A stretch of 64,000 nt of DNA, taken from positions 1,836 through 65,835 of the forward strand of contig CAVJMJ010000010.1 in NCBI GenBank assembly GCA_963650915.1, given 5' to 3'. Position numbers and translations under genes: made by a program. Of the stretch, positions 4,561 through 63,379 are shown piece after piece (the stretch's first letter is position 1; each line of letters opens with the position of its first letter). The DNA is from Parasutterella excrementihominis. GTDB taxonomy: Bacteria; Bacillota; Clostridia; Christensenellales; Borkfalkiaceae. Under the pieces are notes generated by a model that had not been told where the DNA came from, did no database searches, and worked only from the letters and a program-made list of their open reading frames with translations.

Positions 4561-4646
4561 AGTGACTATTAAAATACAAAAAAGTGCGTCTATAAGCCCG
4601 TTAACGGCAATTTTTACTAATTTGGTCTTCCTTTTATTTTACTAAC

Positions 4647-5318
4647 TTAGTCTTTCTTTAAAAGGTCGGGGCGCATCTTTTTTGTAAGCTCCAACGATTT
4701 TTCATAACGCCATTTATCCACCTTTGCGTGGTCGCCCGAAACTATTACTTCCGGGACTTTCAACCCGCGATAAACTTGCGGGCGGGTGTACTGCGGATAC
4801 TCGACCAAATCGTCGGTAAAAGTTTCGTTTTTAAGCGATTCTTTTGAAATAACCCCATCGACGTATCTGCAAACGGCGTCGGTTATTACCATTGCGGGGA
4901 GTTCACCGCCCGTCAAAACGTAATCGCCTATCGACATTTCCTCGTCGATAAACAAATCGATTATTCGTTGATCGACGCCCTCGTAATGACCGCACAAAAA
5001 AAGCAATCTGTCGTAATTTAAAAGGTTTTTAACCTCTTTTTGGCAAAAGGTTTTACCTTTGGGGGACATGTAAATACGCCGTGCCTCGTGGTTCGGGTCG
5101 ACACCTTCTATGGCGTTACCGACGGGTTCGGGCATCAAAACCATACCCGCACCGCCTCCGAAAGTGTAATCGTCGCAACGTTTGTGCTTATCGACGGAAT
5201 ACTCTCGTATGTCGGTAATGACTATTTCTACTTTACCGCTTTTTATAGCCCTACCGATAATGCTTTCCTTAAGCGGAGCGAACATTTCAGGGAAAAGAGT
5301 TAAAATATCTATTCTCAT
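4647..5318 (-). CDS. trmD: tRNA (guanine37-N1)-methyltransferase
   Basis: The track ORF 4647-5423 has a basic, non-homologous N-terminal extension. The conserved start MRIDILTLFPEMF maps to the ATG at 5316-5318, which overlaps the rimM stop as TAATG. Confidence 0.9.
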   Translation of the reverse strand: MRIDILTLFPEMFAPLKESIIGRAIKSGKVEIVITDIREYSVDKHKRCDDYTFGGGAGMVLMPEPVGNAIEGVDPNHEARRIYMSPKGKTFCQKEVKNLLNYDRLLFLCGHYEGVDQRIIDLFIDEEMSIGDYVLTGGELPAMVITDAVCRYVDGVISKESLKNETFTDDLVEYPQYTRPQVYRGLKVPEVIVSGDHAKVDKWRYEKSLELTKKMRPDLLKKD

Positions 5319-5812
5319 TATTGGTACAGACAAACCTCCGTAAAGGATTTTGCGTCGACGGTAATCTTTTTTTCGTCGACGTCGATAACGGCGTTCAATT
5401 TTTTTAAAAAGGGAAAATAACAATCGCCCTCGACTGTTTCGACTTTAAAAATATCGACGTTAGAAGACGTTATGTCAACTATTTTACCGATAAGTTTTCC
5501 GCTTGACAAATAAAGCTCGCACCCTAAAATATCCTCGATAAAATAGCGACCTTCTTCGACTTCGAGTTCGTCTTTTTCGCAGTAAACGTTTTTACCGCGC
5601 AAACTCTCGGCGGCGTTTCTGTCGGCAATACCCCTAAGGTTGAGATAAATTGCCCCGCCCGCAGATTTTTTGGATAAAACGAGGTAGGTTTCGTCGCTTA
5701 TCGTAACCGTTTTTATCCTCTCGATGGCGTCGTAGCCGTCGGTTAAGTCGCTTATTTTAATTTGTCCAGTAATGCCTTGCGGTTTTAAAACACTGCCGAT
5801 TAGAATTTTCAT
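5318..5812 (-). CDS. rimM: 16S rRNA processing protein RimM
   Basis: 164-aa ORF located between the KH protein gene and trmD. Size and PRC-barrel-like C-terminus fit RimM. Confidence 0.8.
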   Translation of the reverse strand: MKILIGSVLKPQGITGQIKISDLTDGYDAIERIKTVTISDETYLVLSKKSAGGAIYLNLRGIADRNAAESLRGKNVYCEKDELEVEEGRYFIEDILGCELYLSSGKLIGKIVDITSSNVDIFKVETVEGDCYFPFLKKLNAVIDVDEKKITVDAKSFTEVCLYQ

Positions 5813-5860
5813 GCTATTTTCCTTACTGCAAATTACCGAAAAAAAGAAAAAGAGGGTAAA

Positions 5861-6103
5861 CTAAGCCCCTGCTTTTTCTGAAATTTCGATATTGTACTTC
5901 TTACCGGACTTAGCCGATGCAGATTTAACCAAAGTTCTTAATGCCTTTGCTATTTTACCCTGTCTGCCGATAACTTTGCCCATATCGTCCGGGAGGAGTA
6001 AGACGTTTACGTTTACGACATTGCCTTTTTCTTCAACGTTAAACTCGACTTCGTCCTTATGTTCGGCAAACTGCAATACTACGTACTTAATAAGGTCTAA
6101 CAT
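5861..6103 (-). CDS. KH domain RNA-binding protein (YlqC family)
   Basis: 80-aa ORF with a VIGRQGKIAKALRTL KH motif. It occupies the conserved position after rpsP. Confidence 0.8.
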   Translation of the reverse strand: MLDLIKYVVLQFAEHKDEVEFNVEEKGNVVNVNVLLLPDDMGKVIGRQGKIAKALRTLVKSASAKSGKKYNIEISEKAGA

Positions 6104-6113
6104 ACTTCACCTA

Positions 6114-11728: not shown

Positions 11729-13548
11729 AAATTTCTCTCCGTTTTAAGTTTATATAAAAGTTTAGTCTTTTGCTGAATTTTTTCTATCGTTTTTATCTGT
11801 TTTAAGACGTCCGTTTCCGATTTTGCGTACTCCTCAAGGTAACTTATATCGGTTTCGAGGTTGTTCATTTTTATATATCTTAAACAGTCGTCGTAATAAC
11901 CCTTTTCGTCGGTGCAATAAATTTCTTCCACTCGGCACAGTACGAGGTTCATTTCGCTTAAATAATCTTCGCCGAGCCTGTTCGTAAGCGTTGCGCCGTT
12001 AAAGGAAATTTTCTCGTCGTAAAGTTCGAGTATGAGGGTAGATATTTCGCTACGCAAGGTAGAAGAAAAATCCAAACCGTCCAAATCTTCGGCTTTGGCG
12101 TAACTTTTACCGTTGATTATTGCGGATAAAATATATCTTTCGGCTTTTACGAGGGCGGTTTCTTCCTCCGCCTCTGAGGGTAAAGCCTCGGTTTTTTGCT
12201 CGATAACGGGCTTATAGGCGGACTTTTGAGTGCTTGCATCTAAATCCCGCTTTAAAGATTCGTAGGTTATTTTGGAAATTTGACTTAACTTTTTCAAAAG
12301 TTCTTCCCTTTCGTATTCCTTGTCGCTTTCCGCAATGACTTTTATCGCTTTGTCCAAAAAACGACGTTTTTCCGAAGAATCGTTAATGTTAAAAGACTTT
12401 GCCAAGTAATGAAGTTTATAGTCGATGAGTGGTTCTGCCGAAAGCAAAAGTTCTTTATAACTTTCCACTCCCCTTGCCTTAACGTATTCGTCGGGGTCGA
12501 GGTTATCGGGAAGAGAAATTACTTTGACGTTAAGCCCGGCATCCTTTAAAATCTGCATTCCCCGAAAGGTTGCCTTTTGCCCTGCGGAGTCGCCGTCGTA
12601 ACTTACGATTACGGTATCCGAATACCTCATCATAAGCCTTGCCTGCTCCACGGTAAGCGAGGTGCCCATGCTTGCCACGGCGTTTTTTATACCGCTTGCG
12701 TGCAACGCTATTACGTCCATGTACCCCTCTACCAAAATAAGATATGGCAAAGTGCCTTGCTCTCGTTTAAGTTTTTTGATGTTGTTGACGTTAAAAACCG
12801 TTCTGTTTTTTATGAAAACGCTCGTTTCGCTCGTGTTTTTGTATTTTGCGAAATCGGGCTTTTTTTCAAGCACCCTTCCACCGAAAGCGATTACGTTTGA
12901 AAAACTGTCGATTATGGGAACGATAAGCCTTTTCGCTTCAAAGTCGGAATACTCGCCGGTATCTTTATTGTACGAACATACGCCTGCCGAAACCATGTCT
13001 TCGTAACGATACCCCTTTTCTTTGAGGTGTTTGGGCAAAGACTTGTAGTCAAGCGAGCAACCTATGCCGAAAGCCCGAATGGTGCTTTTGTCGAACCCCC
13101 TCGAAAATAGGTATTCGAGGTATGGTAAAGCCTCGGGTTTTGACAGGTTGTCCACGTAAAATTTTGCCGAATCTTTTAAAATAGCAAGCCTTGTTTGACG
13201 ATTTCTCGCATTTTCTTCTAACTCGGCGTCCTCTTTAAAGGAAGCTTCGGGAAGTTCCATATTGGCGCGGTTAGCCAAAAATTTAACCGCTTCAATATAA
13301 CTTAAACTTTCCACTTCCATAATGAATTTGATTACGTCACCGCCACGCTGACAACCGAAGCATTTAAAAAATTGCCCCGCTTGGTTGACGCAAAAAGAAG
13401 GCGTTTTTTCCATATGCCCCGGAAGCGGACAACGCGCCCAGTAGGCACCGCCCTTTCTTTCCAAACTGCAGTACGCGGAAACGACGTCGACGATTTCGTT
13501 GCGACTTTTTAATTCTTCTATGAATTTTTGGAATTTTTGATCAAACAT
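11725..13548 (-). CDS. dnaG: DNA primase
   Basis: Contains a zinc-binding region ([15 protein letters not shown]...[10 protein letters not shown]) and a Toprim domain ([11 protein letters not shown]). The start is set at MFDQKF (ATG 13546-13548) by homology, and the track ORF extends to 13629. Confidence 0.88.
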
Positions 13549-14548: not shown

Positions 14549-14774
14549 CGGATAGATCGTTTTTTAGCGATAACGGGCTTATAGGCGGACTTTTTGTAAT
14601 TTATATAATTTAAAAATTCGCTAATTTGCAATTTTAAAAATCGCCAATTTTAAAACTTTCTATTTGCAATTTAAAAATTTGCCGATTTATCGGTTAAAGA
14701 ATTTTTTGATTTACGATTTTTTCCTATCGGCATATTTACATATTTACATACTTACGCATTTAAAATTTTACTTA

Positions 14775-17873: not shown

Positions 17874-18675
17874 TTTTTTGTGCCTCCTTAATGGCAATGT
17901 AATCTTTGTCTTTTGAAAAATCACGGCTGAAATCGGCTTGTCCGCCGAGGGCTTCTATCGCAATTAAAATTTCTTTGGTCGAAACGTAATCGTTTGTTTT
18001 TTGCAACCCTTCATAAAGGGTATCCAAAACGCTTTCGTCGTCGTATTCAACAAGATACGAGCAATACTCCGGTGCCTTTTTAAGGTTTGAAGAAAATTCC
18101 CTTTCAAGGGTTTTCGTCATAATTTTGCTATGCTTTTTTTGCTTGGAAATAAGGTCGCAAAGTTGAGAGGTAACGACTGCGTTTTCGTCATTTAAATAGT
18201 CGTTTATTTTATCGAAAACTTCTTTGTCGGAAAGATAATCCACACAGGCGTCAAGCACGTCTTTTGAACGTTTGCCTTCAAAAAGTACCTCTATAAGCCC
18301 GTTATCGGCGTTTTTTGAGTTTTTGTGCGTCAAAACTTCGATAACGATTAAAAGTAAATCGTCCGAACTTTCTTTACTTATAAGTTTAATGAGTTCGTCC
18401 TCGCCCGCATAGTCTATAAGCGCGTCGATAAGGTATTCGGATACGGGTACGCCTAAAGCAAAATGTTCCTTTAAAATATCTACGACTTCGCAACTTTTAT
18501 CTTCGTAAAAATTTAACGGCGTTTTGCCGTCCAACTTATCGAAGGTCGTTTTGGAAAAGGCGTCGTAAACGGCTTCCTTTTGTTCGTCGACGTCCCCTTT
18601 GAGATTTTCTTTGTTTTTTAAAATATAATCTTTGGCAAAAGTTTTGAACAACTCGTCAATATCAACAATCTTCAT
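17851..18675 (-). CDS. hypothetical acidic helical protein
   Basis: 274-aa ORF with no motif I recognise. It overlaps both neighbours, which suggests one transcription unit with the TPR gene and the DUF1963 gene. Confidence 0.5.
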   Translation of the reverse strand: MKIVDIDELFKTFAKDYILKNKENLKGDVDEQKEAVYDAFSKTTFDKLDGKTPLNFYEDKSCEVVDILKEHFALGVPVSEYLIDALIDYAGEDELIKLISKESSDDLLLIVIEVLTHKNSKNADNGLIEVLFEGKRSKDVLDACVDYLSDKEVFDKINDYLNDENAVVTSQLCDLISKQKKHSKIMTKTLEREFSSNLKKAPEYCSYLVEYDDESVLDTLYEGLQKTNDYVSTKEILIAIEALGGQADFSRDFSKDKDYIAIKEAQKNERKNNG

Positions 18676-20344
18676 TTTTGCACCTAATCAATTTTAATGC
18701 CTGATTGATTTTCGTCTTTTTGGTTATAAAATAATTTGCCAAAAAGGTAGTATCTTTGGCGTAAATGCTCTTTGACATAACGAGCATTGCCGCGCCCAAA
18801 GAGTTTACGTCTTCGATTTTTTCGAGGTTTCCGTTGTCCTTTAAGGCATTTAAAACGTTTTTCGCGCTTTGCGCCAAAGCCTTAAAATCCGTTTTACAAA
18901 AGGAACTCATTCTTGCGGCGGCAAAAGCGTGTGCTCTTTTTATAACGGAATCTTTACCGTCGTCTTTTATTTCGGGAATGGGAACGAGTTCGAAATTAAA
19001 ATAAAGTCCGCTGTAAATTGCCGAAAGAGTACTTTTTCGGTCGTTCATCAAAAGAGAATAAACGATTGCGAATTTAACCTTTTCGTCTATCTCGTTTATC
19101 ATTAAAATTCCGATAAAATAGTCCTCGATTTTTTCGTTTTCGGTTTGCAAAAGCGACAATGCCAGTTCTTCTTGCAAATTGTTGTAAAAAGAATAAATAA
19201 AATCGCAAACTTTAAAGACGCCGTTCAGTTTTCTGTCGGTAATCTCCGGCTTTTCGTGTATATAGTCGATTGCTTTTTCGACGAGTTTTTTCATTACGCT
19301 TTCGGGATAACGCAATTCGCCGTCGATACGCCTTAACTTGGGCTTTTCGTCGCGACATCTGTCTATATAGTACTTTGCGACGTCGTAGTCGGTAATCTGG
19401 TAAACCTTTATAAAATATTTTTCCGCCTCTTTTTTGTTGCCGAGGTTATAATAGGCAGCCCCCGCAACGAATAACCCGTTAATGGAATAAGGATAGTCGT
19501 CAAGTGCCTTTAAAGCGTACTCTAAAGCCCAGTCGTCACGCTCGATATTCAAACAGGACGTTGCCACTTTATAGCATTCCTCAAAGGTAACGAGATTGAA
19601 ATTTTCAAGGGCGCGATACGCCTTTTCGGATTCCTTAAAGTTGCCGGTGTCCGCAAGTAAAACGAACATGTTGATAACGGGAAGATTATCGTCGGGAAAC
19701 TCCTCTATAAGCCCGTTAATGATGGTTTTTGCCTTTTTAACGCTTTCGTTTACGGCGTAATAAGCGGCTATTCTCAATTGCGCGCCGACGTAATTTTGAT
19801 CGGTTTTTGGAATGCTTTTTAATAACTTCAAAGCCTCCTTGTCACCCGTTAAATACAAGTTTTTTTCGGCAAGTTCGATCCTCTTGTCCGAAGGCATTTT
19901 TTTAGGTGGATAGGAAACGTAAAAATCAGGTTCTTCGGGGAATGCGACCATTTCGAAATAATCGAGTTTTTCGTCGAGATAATCGAATTCTTCATCGGGG
20001 GCGATAATCAGTTGCAAGTCGTAATAATACCCTGCCAAACGGTAATTGTCCAAAAGATAAAAACAAGCACCGAGGGCGTTATAAGCCTCGGCTTTTTCAT
20101 CTTCCGTGCAAGTATCGAGAAACTTAAACCAATAGCCTAATGCCATTCTTATTATATCGAGGTCCATATAGACCTTGGCGATTTCGCGATATATTTCGGC
20201 GGTAGGGCTTTTTTTCAATAAATGCAATATGTTAAGCGCACCTATATAATCGCCTTCTTCCCTCCGTTTAACGGCTAAATTCAGTTGTTTTTCGGCAAAT
20301 ACGCCGAGATTGTCCTTAATTTTCATTATCGAAAAGTCTGTCAA
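18662..20344 (-). CDS. TPR repeat-containing protein
   Basis: 560-aa ORF with recurrent A-x-x-Y-Y-x-x-A/G 34-residue-like repeats (EAYNALGACFYLLDNYRLAGYYY, GAAYYNLGNKKEAEKYF). Confidence 0.6.
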   Translation of the reverse strand: MTDFSIMKIKDNLGVFAEKQLNLAVKRREEGDYIGALNILHLLKKSPTAEIYREIAKVYMDLDIIRMALGYWFKFLDTCTEDEKAEAYNALGACFYLLDNYRLAGYYYDLQLIIAPDEEFDYLDEKLDYFEMVAFPEEPDFYVSYPPKKMPSDKRIELAEKNLYLTGDKEALKLLKSIPKTDQNYVGAQLRIAAYYAVNESVKKAKTIINGLIEEFPDDNLPVINMFVLLADTGNFKESEKAYRALENFNLVTFEECYKVATSCLNIERDDWALEYALKALDDYPYSINGLFVAGAAYYNLGNKKEAEKYFIKVYQITDYDVAKYYIDRCRDEKPKLRRIDGELRYPESVMKKLVEKAIDYIHEKPEITDRKLNGVFKVCDFIYSFYNNLQEELALSLLQTENEKIEDYFIGILMINEIDEKVKFAIVYSLLMNDRKSTLSAIYSGLYFNFELVPIPEIKDDGKDSVIKRAHAFAAARMSSFCKTDFKALAQSAKNVLNALKDNGNLEKIEDVNSLGAAMLVMSKSIYAKDTTFLANYFITKKTKINQALKLIRCKNEDC

Positions 20345-21320: not shown

Positions 21321-22049
21321 TTATTTTTTGGCTATGAATTGAGCCCTTAAAGAGTCTTTTTTAAGTTCTCCGCCCATATGTTCGGTTACGATAACCGTCT
21401 TATAGCCCGACTTTTCGAGTTTTTCGGTGATATCGTCCACGGTGTGAATGTATTCCGTTTGGCTTTCTTCTTTTTTAATGTATTTATCCCCCTCTTTTAT
21501 AAAGACGGACACGTCCATATCAACTTTGTTTTTGCAAAGTTTGTTGAACCAAACGTAAGTCATATCGTCGAAATCTTCCGAAAAAACGTTGTTTGCTATA
21601 ACCTTTTCGAGTTTATACTCGGTTGAAATATCGAAAAACAGTACGCCGTCTTTATCGAGTAAAGAATAAAAACGTTTGAAAGCCTTTTCGAGTTTTTCGT
21701 GCGGAAGATAATTTATTCCGTCGTTTACCACCGTAATAAAGTCAACCTTGGAAAAGTTTTTGACGGTAGTCATATCCCCTTCCCTAAAAAGAATGTTAAG
21801 CCCCTCTTTTCTTGCAAGATCTACGGCGACGTTGAGCATATCGGGCGAACAATCGATTCCTTCCATCATAAAGCCCGCTTTTTTAAGGGCACGGGTAAAA
21901 TAACCCGTTCCGCAAGCCATATCGAGCCCGCTTATTCCCTGTGCGTGGGTTTTTACGAGCGAACAAAGATAATCCGCCCATTTTAAATAATCTTCGTCGG
22001 AAAGCACTCTTTCGTAAATTTCCGCCAAAGCAGAATAGGGTTTGTTCAT
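21321..22049 (-). CDS. class I SAM-dependent methyltransferase
   Basis: 242-aa ORF with a glycine-rich SAM motif (LDMACGTGYFT). The substrate is unknown. Confidence 0.7.
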   Translation of the reverse strand: MNKPYSALAEIYERVLSDEDYLKWADYLCSLVKTHAQGISGLDMACGTGYFTRALKKAGFMMEGIDCSPDMLNVAVDLARKEGLNILFREGDMTTVKNFSKVDFITVVNDGINYLPHEKLEKAFKRFYSLLDKDGVLFFDISTEYKLEKVIANNVFSEDFDDMTYVWFNKLCKNKVDMDVSVFIKEGDKYIKKEESQTEYIHTVDDITEKLEKSGYKTVIVTEHMGGELKKDSLRAQFIAKK

Positions 22050-23519: not shown

Positions 23520-24644
23520 ATGAACATTGCTATTGCGGGCGCAACGGGCGTAGTCGGAAGAAAAATTATCGAAATTTTGGAAGAACGCCGATTCGTTGCC
23601 GATAATTTTTATTTTTTTGCAAGCAAAAATTCTTTCGGAAAGACTTTGAAAATTTACGGCAAAAATATTTCGGTGGAAGAACTTAACGATTTTAATGTTA
23701 AAAGTAAAAAAATCGACATCGCTTTTTTGGCTTGTCCTTCAACGGTGTCTATCTATTACGCCCCGTTATTTGCAAAAATCGGCGCAACGGTTATAGACAA
23801 TTCTTCGGCGTTTAGGCTGAATAAAAACGTTCCCCTCGTCGTACCGACGGTTAACGACGAGGAAATTTTCACGCTCGCTAAAAGGGTGCAAAACAGAACG
23901 GGGCGTAAAAAAACGGGGACGACGGGGCTTAACGAAGCCGTAAAGACGGGGTATGATGACCTCGGAAAAACGGGGTGTAACGACATCGGAAAAACCGAAC
24001 ATAACGACATCGGAAAAACGGGACGAGGGATAATTTCCAACCCGAATTGTTCTACGATTATGCTTATGCCGGTGCTAAACGCCCTTAAAAAATTCGGACT
24101 GAAGAAAATTAACGTTACGACATATCAAGCCGTTTCGGGTGCGGGAAGACAGGGCGTTTTAGACCTATCGGGCGGTGAAAAACAAAATTTGAAATTCGAT
24201 AAAAGAATATATTCCAACTGTCTTTCCAAAATAGGAAAGTTCGACGAGAACGGCTACTCGGAAGAGGAAAATAAAATTATAAACGAATCGAAAAAAATTT
24301 TGCGTTTGCCACGCTTGAAAGTATCGGCAACCGCCGTGAGAGTTCCCGTTTTCAATTGCCATTCCGAAGCCGTTTACGCAGAATTTTCTTCCGTTATCGA
24401 CTTAAAGTCCGTAATTTCGAAATTAAGTATAGCCCCGAGAGTTAAACTTTACCTCGACGATTACCCTACAGTGCTCGACGCCGACGGCAACGATTTTATA
24501 CACGTAGGCAGGGTGAGAAAAGACATATCTAATCCGCGTGGATTGCAACTTTGGATTACCTCGGACAATTTGAGAACGGGTGCCGCGCTAAACGCCGTTT
24601 TAATTGCCGAAATCTTACAAAAAACGCCGATAATCGACATATAG
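23520..24644 (+). CDS. asd: aspartate-semialdehyde dehydrogenase carrying a ~54-aa repeat-encoded insertion
   Basis: MNIAIAGATGVVGRK is an NAD(P)-binding start, and IISNPNCSTI is the active-site Cys motif. The insertion lies at nt ~23868-24029 between VPTVNDEEI and IISNPNCST. Confidence 0.85.
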   Translation: MNIAIAGATGVVGRKIIEILEERRFVADNFYFFASKNSFGKTLKIYGKNISVEELNDFNVKSKKIDIAFLACPSTVSIYYAPLFAKIGATVIDNSSAFRLNKNVPLVVPTVNDEEIFTLAKRVQNRTGRKKTGTTGLNEAVKTGYDDLGKTGCNDIGKTEHNDIGKTGRGIISNPNCSTIMLMPVLNALKKFGLKKINVTTYQAVSGAGRQGVLDLSGGEKQNLKFDKRIYSNCLSKIGKFDENGYSEEENKIINESKKILRLPRLKVSATAVRVPVFNCHSEAVYAEFSSVIDLKSVISKLSIAPRVKLYLDDYPTVLDADGNDFIHVGRVRKDISNPRGLQLWITSDNLRTGAALNAVLIAEILQKTPIIDI

Positions 24645-24701
24645 AGGCACTTTTCGCATTTATACAAAGTAATACCATATAGCAAAAAAGGGAGGCTTTT
24701 T

Positions 24702-26543: not shown

Positions 26544-26631
26544 AAAAAAACACCCCTTAAGTTTATAATATGATACAAACCCAAAGGATGTTTATTTTTT
26601 AAAAAAGTGAGCCTATAAGCCGATTAACGAC

Positions 26632-27063
26632 CTATTCGACGGCAACGACGTTTGCACTTTTTACGTGGTTTATCTTCTTTAATTCTTTAACCATCGACTG
26701 CGTATCGATGCTTAAATTGCTTACGTCGATAACTATCGTAATAAACGACACACTGCTTATCGGAAGCGTGGAGTTTATGGTTATGATGTTACCGCCGTAA
26801 GAATAGATATCCTGCATCACGTTGCTTAATACCCCTGCGGCGTCCGCCAACTTTAAAGTAACAACCGCTTTTTTGCCGTACGACTTAGAAGCGGTAAAAA
26901 TTTTATCTTTATACTTATAGAAAGTGGAACGGCTTATTCCCGTTTCCTTACAAGATAAACTGACGCTCTTTTTTTCGTCTTCGACAAGGCTTTTTGCCTT
27001 TAAGACAAGTTCGTAATAATTTGGTAATATCGACTTATCGACAATTAAATATTCCGACCCCAT
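26632..27063 (-). CDS. ACT domain protein of the UPF0735/PheB-like family with an N-terminal HTH-like segment
   Basis: 143-aa ORF. The GISRSTFYKYKD helix-turn-helix-like segment is followed by an ACT-like fold. Size and layout match UPF0735. Confidence 0.65.
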   Translation of the reverse strand: MGSEYLIVDKSILPNYYELVLKAKSLVEDEKKSVSLSCKETGISRSTFYKYKDKIFTASKSYGKKAVVTLKLADAAGVLSNVMQDIYSYGGNIITINSTLPISSVSFITIVIDVSNLSIDTQSMVKELKKINHVKSANVVAVE

Positions 27064-30218: not shown

Positions 30219-30370
30219 AAAATTTGACCGCCTTATCAGTATTTGTTTTATTATAATATATTTATCGATAAAAGTCAACGCCTTTTAAAACTATAAAAAT
30301 GCCGACGTTTTTTTGAAAAACAAGCCGTAAATTTTGTCGAAATATCGAAATAAGTGCCTCTATAGGTCGA

Positions 30371-32065: not shown

Positions 32066-32347
32066 GTTGCTTGATTGCTTTATCCTGTTTTTTCTTATTA
32101 TAGCATAACGGCTAAAAATATACAAACCCTTTGTACGGATAGTTTATTAAAAATTGAAAAGGCTTTTTGATTTTTAGGTTAAAAAAGTCGTAAATACTCA
32201 AATAATCGACCTATAGGCGGGTTTTTAGATTATTTTAATATTCAAAAAAAGACGGCACCGATAAATTTATTTGCTAAATTCATCGGCGTCGCCTTAAATT
32301 CTTTTTAAGAATAAATTCGTATGAATAAATTCGCTATATCCGTACGA

Positions 32348-42200: not shown

Positions 42201-45200
42201 TAACGTTTTGTTCTGCAACTTCAGCCGTCAAACCGTATTCAGCGCCGTTATAAGTTTTTGTTAAAGCGTATTGAAGTTTAGTTTCCGTCTTACTTGCGGT
42301 TGCTTCTGTCTTATTGCCGTTTATAGCGGTTAAAGTAACGGAAGCGGTATCGGCACCGTATTCTACGTTGCCGTTTATAGCCATAGATGCGAAAATTTCT
42401 TCGGCATAAGAATTAGTATTGCCTATACGTTTTTCAACGAATTCTTTAACATCAGAAGTCGCACCTTCTATAAGTCCGTTATACTCATTCCAAAGCGTTT
42501 GTGCGCTTGTGATAATGGTGTCGCCTTTTAATTGAGCGTTGAAAGCTTCAACGTCTGCGATGTATTGCGCCAAAGACTGGGTGTGAACGTAAAGGGTGGT
42601 TTTGCCCGTGAAACTATAATCGTCGTTTTGAACAACAACATTTTCGGTTACGTAAGCAGTTGTAGGAGCGTCAACAATAGTAAGTTTTACGTACAAACCT
42701 TCGGCATCGCCGTAGTAGGTAACGAGGGCGAAAAGCGCGAAGTCTTGGATGATTTTGCCGTCCTTGTCGTAAATACGCATCGTTTGGGTGCCGTCTTTTT
42801 CTAAATCGAGTTCAACCGATTTAATTACTTTGTCGAGTGCGGTTTCACCGTTGATAACGACGTTTGCTGTGTATTTAACTTTTTGGTAGCCTTCGGTGTA
42901 ATAAGTGATAACGCCGTCTTTGGAAATTACCGCTTGTGCGCTGAATTTGCCGTCAACTATCGTGGCGTTTTCGGAACCGCCGACGTTTACATTAACGCCG
43001 TTTGCGCCGTTTACCGTGAAGTTAACCGTTGCAACGTAGTTTGTGCCGTTCCATTCAAGGAAGCGACCTTTCATTGCTTGGTTAAGGATAACGGAAAGTT
43101 TTTCCGAATCGATTCTCGATGCTTCGGTTGCCGTGAAGCTTTCGAGCGTGAAGGCGTCATTGCTAAAGCCTTTATAGGTTTTACCTGTTTCGAGTTGTAC
43201 AAAGTTGTAAAGCCCGTAAATGCGACCGCTCATACTGAATTTTGCGGTATTGTCTACATAACCGCCGGAGCAACCTTCGGTTATCTCCTGCGTGCCGACG
43301 GTAGCGTCTGTATCGACGTTAACCATAGCCGTTTTGCCCGTCGTTTGCAAGATGCCCGCAAACGCACCGTCTATGTTAAGGGTGCCGTTTACTATAAGCA
43401 TACCGCTTTGGCTAAATTTATATTCAGCTAAAACTTTGTTAGAGGGGTATACCTTACCGCTCTTGTCGGCTTGAATAAGTCCGTCGTAAACGTAGATTGC
43501 GCCGTTTGCGCCGATATTGACGGTTGCGCCCTCTTCGATAGTGACGACCGCGCCCGGCATGATTTTGTATTTTTGATCTACCGTAACCGTCGAACCCGAC
43601 TTAAAGTTAAAGTTATAGGTGTAAGGTATGGCAAGAACCATTTTACCGCTACCGTAACCTTGTAAGTAGAATTCACCTGCGGTGATAGCACCGTACACGT
43701 CGATAGTGCTGAGTCCGCTGTCGCCCAAATGGATATTGCCGACTTGCTCGTTTACCTTTTTATTGTCGTCGTAAGTGATTTCAAGACGACTGCCTTCTTG
43801 CATCCAGATAAGCGCACCTTGTGCACTCGTCCCGGTAGACTTATTTGCTATACTGTCGATTAAAATTACGTCTTGCGTATGTATTGAAGACCAGAAGTAA
43901 AGGGAAGTAGAACCAAGCACTGTTGCGCCGTAGTTAATAATTTGTTTGCATTGTACGTTTACCGTTGCAAACTGAGTAAAGGGGAACTGATCTGCATAAT
44001 ACAACGCATCGGTATTTGTACCGCCCGAATAGTTATTGACCATAAAGGGTTGGCGTAAAGTAGCACCGTTATTTACGGTTATGCTTCCTTCGCCCGTTAC
44101 AAGCCCTATAACGTCCATATAGCCGTTTATTACTATGCTTCCGTTATTTACAAGTTGAGCATAGTCGCCCGAAGTACGACCGGTTGCTTGTTGGTCGGTA
44201 CCGTGTTGTACACCGCCGACGATAAGTTTGCCGTTTACCGTTAACGTTGCTCCGCTATTTACGGTCAAGGTTAAATAAGGCTTAATATTGTTATTCCAAC
44301 TGGCCCTTGAAGTTGAAGTGTTGTTTTGTTTATAACCCGTTTCGTCCGTCGATGAATACGCCAGAACGAGGGTTACGTTTGCGGGGATTTCGAGGTTATT
44401 TTCAATAACACAGTCGTTTATAACGACTATCTTACTGTCCTCGGTATAAGCGATTGCTTCGGCTAAAGATTTATAAAACCTTTTGCTATCCCTTGCAACG
44501 TATTTTGCCGATGACGCACTTGTAACTATTGCTTTGTATGCAGTGGTTTCACTCGTGGTATAGAAAGTATACTTAGCGTCGAAACTTTCTATTTTATCCG
44601 TCAATACGTTAAACCAGCCGTAAAATTTGCTACCCGTACCACCGCTTACGTATTCCAAAGTAATTTGTGAACCTATAGATACTTTTCCGCCGTTTTTGAT
44701 TTCGGTTTCTCCGCACTTAGCGGTTATACAATTATTTAAGGCAGTTTCACTTGCGGAGTATCTTACCGTAGAATCACCCGTTGCATACCCTACGTTTGCT
44801 ATTTCAAATATATCGTCATATCTATCGACACTACCGTCTTTTACAAAAGCGAAATGTATAGTTATGGAAGTCTCCCCATCAGGAATCTCTATAGGTAAAG
44901 TCAAAGTTTTCCAACCTAAATCACCGCTTGATAATGCTGAACTACCTTGTTTATAATCGTCAGTAATATCACCGCAAATATACGGGAACTCGGTTCTATT
45001 TAAGTATGTTATCGGCGGTATATCATTTTCGCCATACCCACTTGATACGATTCTTTTTCTCCAGTTGCTATAAACAATATCGCAGTTAGACTCTGTTGAA
45101 ATGTAATAATCAAATGTCAAAGTACCGGTTTCATAAACAGTAAAGGCAATGCCCGAAGACGAGGATCCTACACTTTGGTTAGTACTTGCAAAAATGTAAG

Positions 45201-50713: not shown

Positions 50714-53518
50714 ATGCAAAAATACGATGTTACGGGCATGAGTTGTGCGGCGTGCTCGAGTAGAATCGAAAAGGTCGTTTCTAAACTCGACGGCGTTAAA
50801 AATTGCTCGGTAAATTTACTTTTGAATTCCATGATTGTCGAGGGCGATATCGACCCCGATACGGTAATTATGGCGGTCGAGCGTGCAGGTTACGGCGCAA
50901 AACTTAGAGATTCAGGCGCAAGCCAAAATTCCACAGTATTCCAAAATTCAGGCGCAAATGCGAGCGCAAATGTCGGCGTGAGCCAAGGCATGGACGCATT
51001 TCAAAATTCCGCCACATATCAAAATGCGGGTGTAAGCCAAGATTCCTGTACGTTGCAAAATTCGGATAGCGTGTCCCAAAATTCTTGCACTTTGCAAAAT
51101 TCGGGCGCATTTCAAAATTCTTCCACGGTACAAAATTCGGGCGGGGGTAAAGCAGAAAAGGGCGGTAGTAAAAGGGCGAAAAAACGGATAAAGACTTACG
51201 ACGAAGAAATTTCAAAAATGAAAAAAAGGTTGTTTTCTTCGCTCGCGTTTTTGATTGTGCTTATGTACGTTTCGATGGGGCATATGATGTTCGGTTTCCC
51301 CTTGCCCGCATTTTTTAACGGCAACCACGTGGCGATGGGGCTTTTGGAAATGCTCCTTACCATTATTATAATGGTCATCAATCAAAAGTTCTTTATAAGC
51401 GGGTTCAAAAGCCTGATACGGCGGGCGCCGAATATGGACGCACTCGTCGCAATCGGCTCCATGACGGCGTTTATTTACAGTACCGTATCACTTTTTTTGA
51501 TGACGGACGCCGTTACGCGCGGAGATAACGCTTTGGCGGGAAAATACATGGACGAGTTTTATTTCGAGTCCGCCGCAATGATTCTTACGCTTATCACCCT
51601 CGGCAAACTGTTGGAAGCGTATTCCAAGGGCAAAACGACCAATGCATTAAAAAGCCTTGCTTTACTGAAACCGCAGTCGGCAACCGTACTCGTCGACGGT
51701 AAGGAAGTTACGGTTCCCATTGCAAAAATCAAAATCGGCGACACTTTTATAGTTCACCCCGGGGAAGCCGTCCCGGTGGACGGAATTGTTTTAAGCGGTA
51801 ACAGTGCAATCGACGAATCCATGCTTACGGGCGAGTCGGTACCGTCCGATAAAAGCGAAAACAGCCTCGTGTTTTCGGGGACTTTGAACAGTTACGGCTT
51901 TTTAACGTGCAGGGCGACCAAGGTCGGTGAGGACACTACGCTGTCTAAAATCATTAAAACCGTCGAAGAGGTTTCGATGACCAAAGCACCCATTGCAAAA
52001 ATCGCAGATAAAGTTTCAGGCGTTTTCGTGCCGACCGTCATCGGCATTGCACTCGTTACGGTAATAGTTTGGCTTGCAGTCGGCAAGTCCGTCGGGTTTG
52101 CACTCGCAAGAGGAATTTCCGTACTCGTTATAAGTTGCCCCTGCGCTTTGGGGCTTGCCACCCCCGTCGCAATTATGGTGGGTAGCGGTGTTGGTGCGAA
52201 AAACGGCATTTTGTTTAAAACGGCAGAATCCCTCGAAAAAACCGGCGAGGCAAAAATCGTCGTTCTCGATAAAACGGGGACGATTACCGAGGGTAAACCG
52301 TCGGTTACCGACGTCGTCCCATGCGTGGGGGTAACTTCAAGCGAACTTTTAACCTACGCTTTTGCCTTGGAAGCAAAAAGCGAACACCCCTTGTCCCTTG
52401 CCGTAAAGGACGAGGCGGAAAGGAAAAATATCGAACGGTTGGAGGTCGAAAACTTTCAAAATATGTCCGGTAACGGGCTTATAGCCCGACTTTTTGGCAA
52501 AACCTTAGTCGGCGGAAACTATAACTTTATTAAAAATTACGCTAAGATATCGGATGAAATTCGCGATGCTTCGGACAGACTGTCTAACGAGGGCAAAACT
52601 CCCCTTTACTTTTCTTACGACGGGAAACTTTTGGGCGTTATAGCCGTTGCGGATACCATAAAACCAGATAGCGTTGACGCTATTAAAAAATTGCAAAAGT
52701 CGGGGCTAAAAGTTGTGATGCTTACCGGCGATAACCAAAAAACGGCTAACGCCATCGGAAAAATAGTCGGCGTCGACGAGGTTATTTCGGGCGTGCTTCC
52801 CGACGGCAAACAACGGGTTATCGACGACCTTAAAAAACAAGGTTCGGTCATTATGGTCGGCGACGGCATCAACGACGCTTTGGCTCTTACGACCGCCGAC
52901 GTCGGCATTGCTATCGGCAAAGGCTCGGACGTCGCAATAGATTCCGCCGACGTGGTTTTGATGAAAAACAGCCTCGAAGGCGTCTTTACCGCCGTAAATT
53001 TGAGCAAGTCGACGCTAAGAAATATCAAGGAAAACCTGTTTTGGGCGTTCTTTTATAATTCTTTGGGCATTCCCCTCGCCGCGGGCGCGTTTATAAATTT
53101 GTTCGGTTGGCAGTTGAACCCCATGTTCGGCGCGGCGGCTATGAGTTTGTCAAGTTTCTTCGTCGTCATGAACGCTTTACGCCTTAACCTTTTTAAACCG
53201 AATAAAAACAGTAAAAATAAAAACGTTAACCGCAGTGGCGACACGAATAAAAATTGCGAAGTTAACTGCAGTGGCGGAACGAATAACAATTGCGACAAGG
53301 AGGTCGTTATGAATAAAACTTTAAAAATAAACGGTATGATGTGCGGACACTGCGAAGCCCACGTCAAAAAAGCCCTCGAAGCAATCGACGGCGTAAAATC
53401 TGCGGAGGCAAACCACGTAAACGGCACGGCTAAAGTCGTGCTTGATAAAGAGGTTTCCGACAACGCACTGAAATCCGCCGTCGAAGCCGAAGGTTATACC
53501 GTTACCGAAATCATTTAA
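50714..53518 (+). CDS. copA: copper-translocating P1B-type ATPase with an N-terminal HMA domain, a QNS-rich repeat linker and an extra C-terminal HMA (CopZ-like) domain
   Basis: GMSCAACS (N-terminal HMA), CPC (SCPCALGLATP), DKTGT, GDGINDA, and a second GMMCGHCE HMA domain at nt 53309-53515. Confidence 0.92.
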   Translation: MQKYDVTGMSCAACSSRIEKVVSKLDGVKNCSVNLLLNSMIVEGDIDPDTVIMAVERAGYGAKLRDSGASQNSTVFQNSGANASANVGVSQGMDAFQNSATYQNAGVSQDSCTLQNSDSVSQNSCTLQNSGAFQNSSTVQNSGGGKAEKGGSKRAKKRIKTYDEEISKMKKRLFSSLAFLIVLMYVSMGHMMFGFPLPAFFNGNHVAMGLLEMLLTIIIMVINQKFFISGFKSLIRRAPNMDALVAIGSMTAFIYSTVSLFLMTDAVTRGDNALAGKYMDEFYFESAAMILTLITLGKLLEAYSKGKTTNALKSLALLKPQSATVLVDGKEVTVPIAKIKIGDTFIVHPGEAVPVDGIVLSGNSAIDESMLTGESVPSDKSENSLVFSGTLNSYGFLTCRATKVGEDTTLSKIIKTVEEVSMTKAPIAKIADKVSGVFVPTVIGIALVTVIVWLAVGKSVGFALARGISVLVISCPCALGLATPVAIMVGSGVGAKNGILFKTAESLEKTGEAKIVVLDKTGTITEGKPSVTDVVPCVGVTSSELLTYAFALEAKSEHPLSLAVKDEAERKNIERLEVENFQNMSGNGLIARLFGKTLVGGNYNFIKNYAKISDEIRDASDRLSNEGKTPLYFSYDGKLLGVIAVADTIKPDSVDAIKKLQKSGLKVVMLTGDNQKTANAIGKIVGVDEVISGVLPDGKQRVIDDLKKQGSVIMVGDGINDALALTTADVGIAIGKGSDVAIDSADVVLMKNSLEGVFTAVNLSKSTLRNIKENLFWAFFYNSLGIPLAAGAFINLFGWQLNPMFGAAAMSLSSFFVVMNALRLNLFKPNKNSKNKNVNRSGDTNKNCEVNCSGGTNNNCDKEVVMNKTLKINGMMCGHCEAHVKKALEAIDGVKSAEANHVNGTAKVVLDKEVSDNALKSAVEAEGYTVTEII

Positions 53519-55496: not shown

Positions 55497-55699
55497 GTCG
55501 TATCTCCTTATCGTATTTAATATAAAAACCGTAAATTTCAGTCGTTTTTTGCCGTTAACGGGCTTATAGCCCGACTTTTTTAGTCAAACCGATACAGTTT
55601 CCGTGTTGCGGTTTACTTTTTTATTTAACCGCAATTTTAATCGTTTTTTGCAGTTAACGGGCTTATAGACGGACTTTTACGGTTTTACGAGCTAATTTT

Positions 55700-60994: not shown

Positions 60995-61325
60995 AATTTA
61001 CCTCTATTTTATATTTTTTCTTTTTTTGTTTTTTTGGGTTTGTTTTTTGGGTTTTCTTTTGTTTTGTTTTTTTGGTTTGTTCGTTTTTTCTTTCGTTTGG
61101 TTAATTTTTCGGTGGTTATCGCCTTGACGATTAAGTACTTTCTGTAGTAAAAGCAAATAATACATTCCCAAGTAAAAAATTTATTTACACGACAAATTTA
61201 ATACTTTCGGTAGCCAAAGCAAATAATAAATCTCCAAGCGGAAAATTTATCGCCCCGACAAATTTAATATTTTTGCGACACGCTAATAAAGATAGAAATT
61301 ACTCGACAAGCGTGGCTTAATATAG

Positions 61326-62123
61326 TTAATCGGCGAGCGGATACTTAATGTTTTTGTATAATGCAAACGGGTAAACGAATAACGAAATTATCCCGCCCAA
61401 GACGATGGCAAACACCGTGCATAAAGCAACGAGGGCAAAGCCTAAAATAAACAGTAATAACTTAACGGTAATAAGCCAAACAATGCCGTCGAAATCCAAC
61501 GTAAATATTATTCCGGGCATTTTTACGAAGCCCCAGCTAATAATATCCATAGCCATTTCGCCTACGAAATTATTGTCGAGAATCCAGCACGATACGAGAG
61601 TAAAAGCACATACCGACGCTATTATCCCCGGAATGAGATAATTGCCTCTTAATATAATTGACACTATAAGTAAAACTCCCGTTGCCACTCCTCCCCAGAT
61701 AAAGGATAACTTTCTCCTTTTTTCGGCGTCTGCCGTCTTACACTTTATTTTGTTTTCTTGGTATTTATCTTCGCAACTGCGACAATATACTTTAGTTTGC
61801 CCGTTCTCGGTTTTTCTGACTATCTGTTTGCCGTCGTAAATGGGTTTGTTGCACTTTTCGCAAACGGCTAACACGGGCTTACTTTCTTTATATACGTACT
61901 CCTTTTCGTGGATGACTATGGGTTCGGGTTTTTCCTTGCCCATAATTTCGTCTATAGAAACGTTGAAGATTTCCGAAATTATCTTCACCGTCGTAAGCGA
62001 CGGTTCCACGTCACCCTTTTCCCATCTCGAAACGGCTTGGGTGGTAACGAATAACTTTTCGGCTAAATCAGACTGTGTCATTCCGTTTTTCGTACGTAAC
62101 TCGCGTATTTTTTCGCCAATCAT
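61326..62123 (-). CDS. XRE-family HTH protein fused to a Cys4 zinc-ribbon-like segment and C-terminal TM helices
   Basis: The start MIGEKIRELRTKNGMTQSDLAEKLFVTTQAVSRWEKG (ATG 62121-62123) has GGAG upstream. It also has CEKCNKP...CRSCED and about 4 hydrophobic segments. Confidence 0.75.
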   Translation of the reverse strand: MIGEKIRELRTKNGMTQSDLAEKLFVTTQAVSRWEKGDVEPSLTTVKIISEIFNVSIDEIMGKEKPEPIVIHEKEYVYKESKPVLAVCEKCNKPIYDGKQIVRKTENGQTKVYCRSCEDKYQENKIKCKTADAEKRRKLSFIWGGVATGVLLIVSIILRGNYLIPGIIASVCAFTLVSCWILDNNFVGEMAMDIISWGFVKMPGIIFTLDFDGIVWLITVKLLLFILGFALVALCTVFAIVLGGIISLFVYPFALYKNIKYPLAD

Positions 62124-62435
62124 ATAAAAAACTCCTTTTTCGTCAAATGCGACATAAAAAATATAAACCGCAAGGTGCAAATTGTAAAGCCAAAAAAACC
62201 GAAAATCGCTCAACAATTTGTTGATTTTGCTCAACAAATTGTTTAATAGCCGTGTTTTTGGCAAATAATATTTCAACCCCGAGATTTTTCTCGATTCAAC
62301 GGCTTGTTGATTTTTATCCCCGTCAATATGATAAAATTTGACTGCGCTGTGACGCTTAAGTGATTTTAATAATATTATATCAAGACTTTTGACCTATGTC
62401 AAGACTTTTGACCTTAGCTAAAATATAATTTGACT

Positions 62436-62648
62436 ATGAATAAGCTTAATAGTAACAATTATATAGACGTAATTAAAGGCATAATGATCGAGAAAAACCT
62501 TACTCAACAAAAATTTGCTTCGGTTATAGGTGTCAATCAAACGACGGTAAGTCAATGGTTACTCGGCAAAAAGAAGCCGACTTACGACAGTATTTTATCC
62601 ATTTGCACTAATTTCGACGTTTCCCCCAATGAGTTTTTCGGTTTTTAA
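62436..62648 (+). CDS. small XRE-family HTH transcriptional regulator
   Basis: LTQQKFASVIGVNQTTVSQWLLGKKKP is an HTH_3-type motif. It is divergent from the larger XRE gene. The ATG at 62436 is preferred over the TTG at 62430. Confidence 0.7.
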   Translation: MNKLNSNNYIDVIKGIMIEKNLTQQKFASVIGVNQTTVSQWLLGKKKPTYDSILSICTNFDVSPNEFFGF

Positions 62649-63379
62649 CGAAACCTATTTTTTTATTAAATAACGGTGCGTTTTTTATGCCGTTTTTTTA
62701 AAATATCCGCCTATAAGCCCGTTAACGGGCTTTTTTGTGCCAAAATTACCTTTAAGCGTACGTTAAATTACCTTTTAGTATACTAAAAATCACCTTTAAA
62801 CGTATGTAAAAACATCTTTAAGCGTACAAAAAATCTCCTTAAAAATCGATTCAAAACGCCTTTAATAGTTTGGTTTTCAAAATCTTTATTATAAACCTAC
62901 CGATAAATCGATTTTTTAGTAATTTTGCTATTACGATTTAAAGACTTTTTAATTTTTTATTTGATTTTAAATTGTTGACTAAACCCAACGTTTATCAAAA
63001 AAACTCCGCCACGTGCGGAGTTTTTTATTTATAAATTTTGCGTCCCGATAAGCCCCTTTACGTAAATGGAAAAAGTAAGAGTTATCGTCACTTTGCATAA
63101 AGAAAAAACACAGTATATATTGTTCCGCTAATAAGCACACAATTCACGACCGCAGGTCAATTCATGCGTCGAAAGACGCAATTCATACATTACTTTTTGA
63201 CTAAAAGTCCTTCTATAGGTCGATTAACGGCGATTTTTGTAAAATGAAAAAGTGCCGATATGCGCACTTTTTCATTATTACGTATTTACATATGTTTAGA
63301 AATACTTTGGTTTAATTTTAATAGGCTTCACGTTAAAAGTTTCAAGCGTCTTTTAACGGTTTCGTCGGACAAAACAAAA

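Follow-up and report, generated by a model that had tools for sequence, protein, structure and literature searches.

What kind of element recurs every 3-5 kb, both within genes and directly after them, through a stretch of Clostridial DNA? The question is raised by the window examined here (the whole stretch of DNA analysed, 64 kb long), in which an initial annotation had listed 18 copies of a ~25-nt oligo and had likened it to the DNA uptake sequences of Neisseria (DUS) and Pasteurellaceae (USS). All 18 copies were recovered where that annotation had placed them, and the motif is real, but ~25 nt was too short: the unit spans ~36 bp, its 3' side adding a T/A run and a conserved TCG.

The element and its copies

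The element is pseudo-palindromic, AAAAGT-N4-CTATAAGCCCGTTA-TCG-N4-TTTTT, and the pseudo-palindromy covers both core and flanks; a fuller consensus reads AAAAGT-N4-CTATAA-GCCCG-TTATCG-N3/4-(A/C)TTTTT. Its invariant portion amounts to 14 bp, with a near-invariant core, and the N4 spacers vary between fixed blocks. A minor (B) dialect has the core CTATAGGTCGATTA, and a single copy in the window (26613) carries the intermediate core CTATAAGCCGATTA. Some copies are self-complementary variants of CGGGC-TATAA-GCCCG, as had been noted earlier.

The exact core CTATAAGCCCGTTA occurs 13 times (4590, 6490, 10361, 12204, 14571, 18291, 19705, 25826, 52471, 55556, 55655, 58973 and 62711), as against 7e-4 to 1.7e-2 occurrences predicted by Markov models of order 1-5. 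There is one core with a single mismatch (53676) and there are three CTATAGGTCGATTA cores (30360, 32203, 63213); allowing up to two mismatches, 17 cores were observed where 100 dinucleotide shuffles give 0.58. Beyond the 18 copies lie more degenerate ones at 2053, 2994, 4248, 21392 and 24631, and a dialect-agnostic scan over the 22 constant positions returns 23 copies with at least 17 matches. The principal copies are as follows (L101, L116, L117 and L122 are sequences used for comparison).

2041..2076, minus: degenerate copy of B type, CTATAGGTCGGATA, matching 20 of the 22 constant positions; in an rlmL-like gene, sense
4580..4615, plus: exact core; intergenic, 30 nt past the stop of a ylqF-like GTPase gene; orthologous copy in L122
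6480..6515, plus: exact core, CGGG hairpin variant; intergenic, 11 nt past the ffh stop; orthologous copies in L122 and, in a different dialect, in L116
10349..10384, minus: in trmK, sense; encodes QKSAYKPVI; gap-free codon alignment to outgroup TrmK
12192..12227, minus: in the hypervariable linker of dnaG, sense; encodes QKSAYKPVI
14559..14594, minus: exact core; intergenic, with convergent genes on either side
18281..18316, plus: in a hypothetical gene (17851-18675), antisense; encodes DNGLIEVLF; gap-free against orthologues, that of L122 having dialect CTATAAGTCGATTA at the same site
19695..19730, plus: exact core in a TPR-protein gene (18662-20344), antisense; encodes INGLIEEF; left flank degenerate
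21380..21415, minus: degenerate copy, core CTATAAGACGGTTA, flanks intact; in a methyltransferase gene, sense
24619..24654, minus: B-dialect copy with one mismatch (CTATATGTCGATTA); runs into the end of the aspartate-semialdehyde dehydrogenase gene, whose TAG stop codon it provides
25814..25849, minus: exact core in the aspartate kinase gene, sense; encodes HKSTYKPVI; orthologous copy in L122 at 568
26603..26638, plus: intermediate-dialect copy CTATAAGCCGATTA; intergenic
30350..30385, plus: B-dialect copy CTATAGGTCGATTA; abuts the stop of gene 30371-32125
32191..32226, minus: B-dialect copy CTATAGGTCGATTA; intergenic
42468..42481, plus: one-mismatch core CTATAAGTCCGTTA without flanks, in a 2877-aa gene; perhaps a decayed copy or a coincidental match
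52459..52494, minus: in copA, antisense; encodes GNGLIARLF; no gaps in the alignment to the CopA structures 3RFU and 3J09; copy conserved in L101
53666..53705, plus: one-mismatch copy after copA; its left half and a downstream complement form a 15-bp terminator hairpin
55544..55579, minus: exact core; intergenic; second unit of a tandem duplication (~99 nt) that L101 lacks
55643..55678, minus: exact core; intergenic, 32 nt past the stop of an FMN oxidoreductase gene; conserved in L101
58963..58998, plus: exact core; 11 nt past the stop of gene 58997-60994, with a separate terminator further downstream
62701..62736, plus: exact core; hairpin GCCCG-TTAA-CGGGC in the right part, then a T run
63203..63238, plus: B-dialect copy CTATAGGTCGATTA; intergenic

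The peptides that had been reported for trmK, dnaG, aspartate kinase and copA are encoded as described, and the terminator hairpin after copA is likewise confirmed. The giant gene, in which no copy had been seen, does contain the one-mismatch core at 42468, although that core has no flanks; apart from it, the 20 kb from 32.2 to 52.4 kb hold just two weak or degenerate matches (35781, 50059).

Formation of copies in place

One explanation is that the element is a miniature mobile unit, a tiny MITE or a REP-like sequence that a transposase or RAYT has spread, its terminal inverted repeats being AAAAGT/ACTTTT. Its short ends do mirror one another, the ffh-rpsP and trmD-ylqF spacers are longer by ~40-50 nt or more with the element than without it, and one copy is carried by the local 99-nt tandem duplication. 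Against this, five coding copies (in trmK, dnaG, copA, the TPR gene and the hypothetical gene) align without gaps to orthologues lacking the motif, and therefore arose by substitution and not by insertion, which excludes a MITE as their source; in trmK, dnaG and copA, where insertion or replacement had been the question, the 27 nt are a replacement. The dnaG linker is instructive: the motif is identical to that of L122 at 27 of 27 nt while neighbouring codons are unrelated, and the DnaG of L117 has no motif and the same length. The varying N4 spacers between fixed blocks, the absence of both target-site duplications and a long palindrome, and viral contigs devoid of the element also argue against mobility. 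Orthologous copies are kept across genera, their dialect switching in place between species, and among intergenic copies the cores are invariant and the flanks have diverged. We consider a mobile origin very improbable, and the REP/MITE-like micro-element once offered as an alternative is not supported. Copies do not spread by transposition. Base substitutions create and maintain them at sites where the motif is tolerated, which are the first tens of nucleotides past stop codons and variable protein segments.

Distribution and dialects

The motif is not confined to the window. It is present in at least 23 species-level Christensenellales-like MAGs (at least 112 blocks), and its hosts form a family-level clade of Christensenellales-like Clostridia, uncultured and from gut and rumen. 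Loci syntenic with dnaG, which provide an unbiased sample of density, hold 5.0, 4.1, 2.8, 2.3 and 0.9 copies per 10 kb in the clade, where about 2-5 is typical, and none in three of three outgroup loci. No genuine copies were found among 2.9 million viral contigs. In other metagenome lineages the B dialect dominates (128 B copies to 6 A copies), with identical flanks.

Placement and relation to transcripts

Approximately 64% of copies are intergenic, in ~15% of the DNA, a roughly 10-fold enrichment, and they lie at a median of 28 nt past the stop codon; the enrichment near gene 3' ends that the initial annotation had suggested checking is strong. This position, together with a G+C-rich middle between an A run and a T run, would suit a signal in RNA, for instance one that terminates, processes or stabilises transcripts immediately past the coding region. 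A few copies do lie within real terminator hairpins (53676, 62711 and some xGGG variants), and folding is slightly more stable than that of shuffles (-8.8 vs -6.3 kcal/mol). Both orientations relative to the upstream gene are nevertheless present (78:56, p=0.07), the hairpin-forming variant is independent of orientation (p=0.59), and 36% of copies lie in genes, more commonly antisense than sense. The left and right spacers do not covary, no conserved RNA fold and no Rfam match were found for the element, and in the sense orientation the T run stands 10 nt away from the only recurrent hairpin. Identity with canonical terminators was rejected, these being as common where the motif is present (16%) as where it is absent (13%), and a consensus scan does not call the motif copies as terminators. 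An RNA-level role accordingly seems improbable to us, and recognition by an RNase, an earlier suggestion, finds no support.

A proposed bendable recognition site

A/T tracts are helically phased around the element over ~110 bp, from about -40 to +66 of the core, at a mean spacing of ~10.6 bp. The phasing is seen on either side of the core, whether a copy is coding or intergenic and whichever dialect it has, and none of 500 permutations reaches the observed signal. Tracts in phase with the DNA helix imply intrinsically curved or easily bent DNA. Our preferred reading, held tentatively at a probability of about 0.36, is that the element is a protein-recognition and bending site in double-stranded DNA, maintained in the manner of DUS and USS. 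Recognition by a protein and a role in DNA uptake are both inferences. A sequence-specific protein would read the element as double-stranded DNA, and a DNA receptor of competent cells would prefer motif-bearing fragments, by the mechanism established for DUS and USS, so that better-matching alleles would be taken up and recombined more often (molecular drive). The motif would tag 'self' DNA, and the phased tracts would ease the sharp bend required for taking in duplex DNA from an internal stretch. Copies, once formed by substitution, are kept almost invariant.

A regex search of 1.35-1.55 Mb of clade DNA for a type IV pilin, a PilB/ComGA-type ATPase, ComEA and DprA found none of them, though the search is a weak one; universal single-copy genes appear 0-2 times each in the same sample. 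With no competence genes seen, membership of the uptake family is a candidate assignment. Candidate ComEC-sized membrane ORFs proved to be other proteins.

Alternatively, the element might be an architectural site for a sequence-specific intracellular DNA-bending or wrapping protein, such as an IHF/HU-like DNABII protein, or for gyrase recruitment. Curved DNA placed where genes end would then serve to control supercoiling or nucleoid domains, and the element would be a Clostridial analogue, evolved in place, of the REP/BIME (RIP) or IHF sites of E. coli. We regard this as possible and as nearly as likely as the uptake-type reading; A/T periodicity and a layout like that of an IHF site fit it about as well. 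The phased tracts of coding and intergenic copies in both dialects and the pseudo-palindromic core and flanks are in its favour, as is the lack of observed competence genes in the clade sample. TATAAGCCCGTTA fits WATCARnnnnTTR, the IHF consensus, at 8 of its 9 specified positions, and the other half-site has an A-tract at a distance of one helical turn. Three of the four dialect-variable positions (7, 9 and 10) fall inside 'nnnn', position 5 falling outside. This match was, however, noticed after the fact and lacks the conserved C. Two features also count against uptake: the gene 3'-end bias, which applies to either orientation and does not disappear where intergenic regions are long, and periodic flanks that are longer than in USS and look like wrapped DNA. 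Yet known nucleoid-protein sites are degenerate, as compared to a 14-bp near-invariant core at hundreds of sites; spacing is irregular, with the stretch from 32.2 to 52.4 kb nearly empty; selection on each coding copy, at an amino-acid cost, is hard to justify; and the clade sample shows one HU-like gene only, of ordinary length. To our knowledge, IHF is not known in Bacillota.

Comparison with known systems

The DUS of Neisseriaceae is a 12-mer with the receptor ComP, and the USS of Pasteurellaceae combines a 9-bp core with phased AT tracts. For DUS and USS, published work reports placement rules, dialects and an association with terminators that match those of our element. The likeness first proposed held for every sequence-level property tested: over-representation by hundreds of fold; occurrence on either strand, both within and between genes, with a concentration at permissive sites directly past genes; limitation to certain reading frames, as stop codons inside the motif close the others; family-wide conservation with dialects and conserved orthologous sites; origin by substitution without insertion; and absence from phage DNA. 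Helically phased A/T tracts are shared with USS. On the other side, no competence genes were found in the clade sample, the close inverted pairs typical of DUS and USS are absent (0 of 120 neighbouring pairs within 150 nt), and few copies form terminator stems. The element is moreover longer (14 invariant bp, ~36 bp in all), 3-4 times sparser and pseudo-palindromic, with phased tracts on both sides over ~110 bp, and its host is a Gram-positive-type Clostridial lineage. We know of no sequence-specific DNA uptake in Gram-positive bacteria; if the element is an uptake signal, it would be of a type not known in that group.

With E. coli REP/BIME elements, the IHF-binding RIP type included, the element shares hundreds of copies, gene 3' ends, either orientation and a tie to DNA bending, the last also a property of IHF sites. 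REPs, though, are extragenic hairpin palindromes copied by RAYT transposases, whereas our element occurs within genes too, forms no stable hairpin and evolves in place; IHF sites differ in their degeneracy. Cyanobacterial HIP1 (GCGATCGC), Chi, KOPS and the Noc (NBS), SlmA (SBS) and matS sites are similarly substitution-evolved, found in and between genes, clade-specific and highly over-represented. They measure 8-16 bp, however, Chi and KOPS are strand-skewed with respect to replication, NBS, SBS and matS number only tens of copies, and none shows a composite layout of 36 bp flanked by phased A/T tracts. Rickettsia palindromic elements and other in-gene MITEs are also short repeats lying in frame in conserved genes, but the Rickettsia elements insert and add residues to the host protein, whereas the alignments of our element are gap-free.

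Abundance and anatomy of the element

The core CTATAAGCCCGTTA is far too frequent in the window to be accidental. Searched with at most two mismatches, the window yields 17 sites, where dinucleotide shuffles average 0.58 and never exceed 4, and 13 copies are exact in 64 kb, where window-trained Markov models of orders 1-5 predict 7e-4 to 1.7e-2; chance or base composition as the source of the motif is ruled out by both controls, and the excess over k-mer expectation on which the initial annotation had staked its proposal is real within the window. When the extended element was scored on its 22 constant positions, 23 copies reached at least 17 matches, with 0-1 in shuffles. The two strands are used about equally, and over-representation on both strands is a feature of the DNA uptake sequences of Neisseriaceae (DUS) and Pasteurellaceae (USS). 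All 18 copies that the initial annotation had listed were recovered where it had placed them, and their encoded peptides, the self-complementary variants and the hairpin of the copA terminator are as it described.

Aligning 178 exact copies, of which 13 belong to the window and 165 to related loci, defines the unit as aAAAAGT-N4-CTATAAGCCCGTTA-(T/A)CG-N3/4-(T, less often A)x5, with CCGC, CGGG or GGGG as the N4 spacer in most copies. Core and flanks together are pseudo-palindromic, with CTATAA-GCCCG-TTATCG set inside AAAAGT...ACTTTT. A second core, CTATAGGTCGATTA (the B dialect, the main core being A), carries the same flanks, and CTATAAGCCGATTA and CTATAAGTCGATTA are among the intermediates; mutual information detects coupling among core positions 5, 7, 9 and 10 only, the positions that define the dialects, and none between the left and right spacers.

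Around the core, A/T content is periodic, with peaks at about -40, -29, -17, -8, +3, +12.5, +23, +33, +43 and +56, a feature that the initial annotation missed. None of 500 permutations reached the observed power. Because the periodicity is present on both sides, in intergenic and coding copies alike, and recurs with the same flanks in 115 B-dialect copies collected independently from metagenomes, the element lies amid A/T tracts that keep in phase with the helix over about 110 bp, the signature of curved or easily wrapped DNA.

One part of the window is poor in copies. Positions 32200-52400 (20 kb) encode very large, probably surface proteins (one of 1081 aa; one of 2877 aa at 39214-47847) and hold two weak or degenerate matches (35781, 50059) and one flankless core with a single mismatch (42468), as against about one copy per 3 kb outside. 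The core at 42468 is a minor correction to the claim that the giant gene holds no copy. The scarcity would be consistent with accessory or recently acquired DNA.

The window also carries four tandem arrays that are unrelated to the motif:

16251-16911: 201-nt unit, 3.3 repeats, 98% identity; each unit has a tRNA-3'-half-like segment and a 10-bp hairpin, CAAACGCAAC-GGT-GTTGCGTTTG; adjoins the only intact tRNA (16890-16961, minus strand); ORF 16229-16855 is probably spurious
38242-38489: intergenic, 35-nt unit, 7.1 repeats, 97% identity
48834-49490: 44-nt unit TTTTTTTACTCGTATGCGTTTTGTTATAACGCATACGACTTTTC with an internal palindrome, about 15 repeats, 92% identity, no unique spacers; in a long non-coding stretch upstream of the 2877-aa gene
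63430-63554: intergenic, 28-nt unit, 4.4 repeats, 89% identity

Placement relative to genes

With a crude ORF caller that assigned 85% of the DNA as coding, 149 of 233 copies (at most one mismatch) are intergenic, that is 64% in about 15% of the DNA, an enrichment of about 10-fold; the other 36% lie inside genes. Between co-directional genes, 74 of 93 copies are closer to the upstream stop codon, which they follow at a median distance of 28 nt; this bears out the enrichment near 3' gene ends that the initial annotation had suggested, and the bias holds in long spacers too. Copies per intergenic kb number 1.3 between co-directional, 1.55 between convergent and 0.44 between divergent genes; absolute densities from most loci are biased because these were chosen for holding a copy, a bias from which the window and loci L116-L123 are free. 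The two orientations relative to the upstream gene number 78 and 56 (p=0.07), and the hairpin-forming xGGG variant is independent of orientation. Promoter-side copies had no recurring neighbour when checked for an adjacent regulator, and none of 120 neighbouring pairs is inverted within 150 nt. Inside genes, antisense copies use the sole open antisense frame (NGLI) and sense copies mainly the KSAYKPVI frame, and the encoded residues sit in variable loops and linkers. In the window, a B-dialect copy at 24631-24644 provides ORF 23499-24644 (aspartate-semialdehyde dehydrogenase) with its TAG stop, which reads CTA on the opposite strand, that of the motif.

A position just after stop codons might suggest a signal acting at the RNA level, a reading we consider very unlikely. 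The 54-nt element does fold somewhat better than its shuffles (mean MFE -8.8 vs -6.3 kcal/mol), but a conserved RNA or single-stranded DNA hairpin was rejected on this weak folding, on dialect coupling confined to the core and on the missing left-right spacer covariation; an Rfam 15 search of the window at gathering score returned a tRNA as its only match and did not match the element. Nor are the copies canonical terminators: a consensus scan does not call them, they occur in both orientations, and genes with the motif are followed by a terminator as often (16%) as those that lack it (13%). A strict hairpin followed by a T-run overlaps only 4 of 134 intergenic copies. A perfect bidirectional terminator with a 20-bp stem at 14768-14813 of the window, AAAAAGCGGACGGC-TATAC-...GCCGTCCGCTTTTT, has arms that resemble the left block of the motif (AAAAGTCCGC...CTATA); the two may be related, or the likeness may be coincidental.

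Origin and maintenance of the copies

Comparison with orthologues indicates how the copies arise. In TrmK the nine motif codons align without gaps to SKRADLPAR, NNKEVLPKT, SSAKSRPEC and LSAPFLPEK of motif-less orthologues, and the segment is also gap-free against solved TrmK structures. GNGLIARLFGK of CopA matches TGKGVVGQVDGH of 3RFU residue for residue. In the hypervariable linker of DnaG, the window and related locus L122 agree at all 27 motif nucleotides, and 26 of 27 are kept in L062, amid adjacent codons that are unrelated; the linker of L117 is equal in length and lacks the motif. Two antisense coding copies are likewise gap-free, and the orthologous site in L122 holds another dialect. 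Against L101, which is 85% identical, four of five window sites are kept, with invariant cores amid diverged intergenic DNA. The fifth (55544-55678) is a tandem duplication of about 99 nt that includes a motif copy and is absent from L101; no other gain of a copy through local duplication was seen.

Since five coding sites are gap-free against motif-less sequences and the cores are invariant where flanks have diverged, it is substitution, under a strong constraint at the DNA level, that creates and preserves the copies, and not insertion; for trmK, dnaG and copA the choice between insertion and replacement thus falls to replacement. A miniature mobile element, the REP/MITE-like alternative of the initial annotation, would supply the dispersal by transposition, and intergenic length comparisons are ambiguous; for coding copies, however, insertion is ruled out by the gap-free alignments, and no target-site duplications, as in insertions of the MITE or Rickettsia in-frame (RPE) type, are visible in aligned flanks. 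Nor did any RAYT or IS200-like transposase gene with copies at its sides come to notice in the window or the related loci. We regard this as the least probable of the explanations considered.

Distribution among genomes

The motif is not confined to the window, being found in related MAGs and in metagenome contigs. Scanning one genome per species for AAAGT-N4-core gave at least 112 blocks of 8 kb from at least 23 assemblies or MAG species with G+C of 36-48%. The matches listed are uncultured gut and rumen MAGs labelled Christensenellaceae, Christensenella or Clostridia, besides a few "uncultured Acidiphilium sp." (L038, L046, L049, L088, L089, L104, L105); the nearest to the window among them is 85% identical, and the window's own genome is absent from these matches. 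The Acidiphilium name looks like a taxonomic mislabel, because the other motif-carrying assemblies among the matches listed are labelled Clostridia or Christensenellaceae. Sporulation genes are retained in the clade, since locus L014 has a SpoIIE homologue (4313-6583), itself with a motif copy.

Motif density in unbiased 22-kb loci obtained through DnaG homologues (locus; DnaG identity to the window; copies per 10 kb)
L122; 72%; 5.0
L117; 65%; 2.3, mostly degenerate
L116; 63%; 4.1, mostly CTATAAGCCGATTA
L118; 58%; 0.9
L119; 56%; 2.8
Outgroups L120, L121 and L123 (one labelled Borkfalkiaceae); 49-52%; 0

L117 (GCA_965332725.1, CBDPQN010000038.1) is nested within the motif-bearing clade and has lost the dnaG and ffh-rpsP sites with length unchanged; this natural "loss" lineage could be used to seek the cognate protein by comparing gene content. 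A metagenome scan for the B dialect gave 100 contigs with 128 B and 6 A copies, and because 95 of the 100 are without any A copy, the main dialect differs in some lineages. The strict pattern had no match in 2.9 million viral contigs, and a phage origin was rejected, three 17-mer matches without flanks being due to chance.

Candidate functions and comparison with known systems

Taken together, the sequence comparisons point to a double-stranded DNA site that would be read by a predicted sequence-specific, DNA-bending protein. Two functional readings are left, an uptake signal and an architectural site, and we rate the former a little above the latter.

As an architectural site the element would play a role like that of REP/BIME or IHF sites, which we think possible though doubtful. 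The phased A/T tracts, pseudo-palindrome and gene-end bias fit. An IHF site spans about 35 bp, one half carrying the consensus WATCARnnnnTTR and the other, optionally, an A-tract. The core agrees with this consensus at 8 of 9 specified positions (a likeness spotted post hoc), and its dialect-variable positions fall inside "nnnn" in three cases out of four; 7 nt upstream, in the other half-site, there is an A-tract. However, the conserved C of the consensus is replaced by A, and nucleoid proteins do not usually have hundreds of sites that are near-invariant over 14 bp, irregularly spaced and, inside genes, costly. The only DNABII gene seen in the sample is an HU-family ORF (L016 6173-6478; L050 3656-3970) whose arm motif is atypical, reading AREGVNPKT where RxGRNPxT is usual.

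By analogy, the element may instead be a DNA uptake signal of the DUS/USS type, to which we assign a probability of about 0.36; whatever probability these explanations leave belongs to something not yet imagined. The likeness proposed by the initial annotation stands for over-representation, strand use, placement rules, frame restrictions, dialects, in-place origin by substitution and absence from phages, and fails for close inverted pairs. Dialects and sharing within a family are seen in the MAG species, the B-dominated contigs, the CTATAAGCCGATTA-rich L116 and the motif-free outgroups. We know of no other class of long motif (more than 12 bp, hundreds of copies) that evolves in place inside genes. 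The clade DNA sampled came to 1.35-1.55 Mb, about 0.6-0.9 genome equivalents, with universal genes, as controls, appearing 0-2 times each; insensitive regular expressions detected no pilin, PilB-type ATPase, ComEA or DprA in it. The negative is a weak one: were the genes present, the chance of detecting none would be roughly 10%. Pfam searches on membrane ORFs of the fetched DNA likewise gave no competence genes, the candidates being other proteins. ORF 55700-57949 of the window, considered as a ComEC candidate, encodes an FMN/FAD oxidoreductase, and a supposed LepA anchor in the fetched DNA is EF-G.

To our knowledge, only two families, both Gram-negative, are known to tag "self" DNA by sequence. 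We speculate, more hesitantly than for the uptake reading itself, that this might be the first sequence-specific uptake signal in a Gram-positive (Bacillota) lineage and a third independent origin, one that has dialects of its own and a 36-bp layout prone to bending. If so, uncultured Christensenellales of gut and rumen would have a DNA receptor that reads sequence and would transform frequently within the clade. Such kin-preferring natural transformation would concern abundant gut anaerobes, and the motif and its dialects would offer a handle for finding the receptor, tracing gene flow and building transformation tools for organisms currently beyond genetic manipulation. If architectural, it would be the first family of high-copy, sequence-specific DNA-bending sites in Bacillota and a clean example of bending sites evolving in place inside genes. 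On either reading the motif constrains the protein sequence of conserved genes and is a strong taxonomic marker for binning these MAGs.

The motif is real and clade-wide, and undescribed in the literature searched: the core occurs in no paper found, nor is any such repeat described there in Christensenellaceae. REP/BIME are extragenic palindromes with stable hairpins, whereas this element is 36% genic, folds at only -8.8 vs -6.3 kcal/mol and has no spacer covariation. As compared to DUS/USS it is longer and sparser, has unusually extended periodic flanks and lacks inverted pairs. It behaves like an uptake sequence but is not filed as one, because close inverted pairs are lacking and its competence and uptake features are putative. 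We know of no dispersed, in-place-evolving recognition motif in the host phylum, Bacillota, and it is as a variant of such motifs that the element would best be called.
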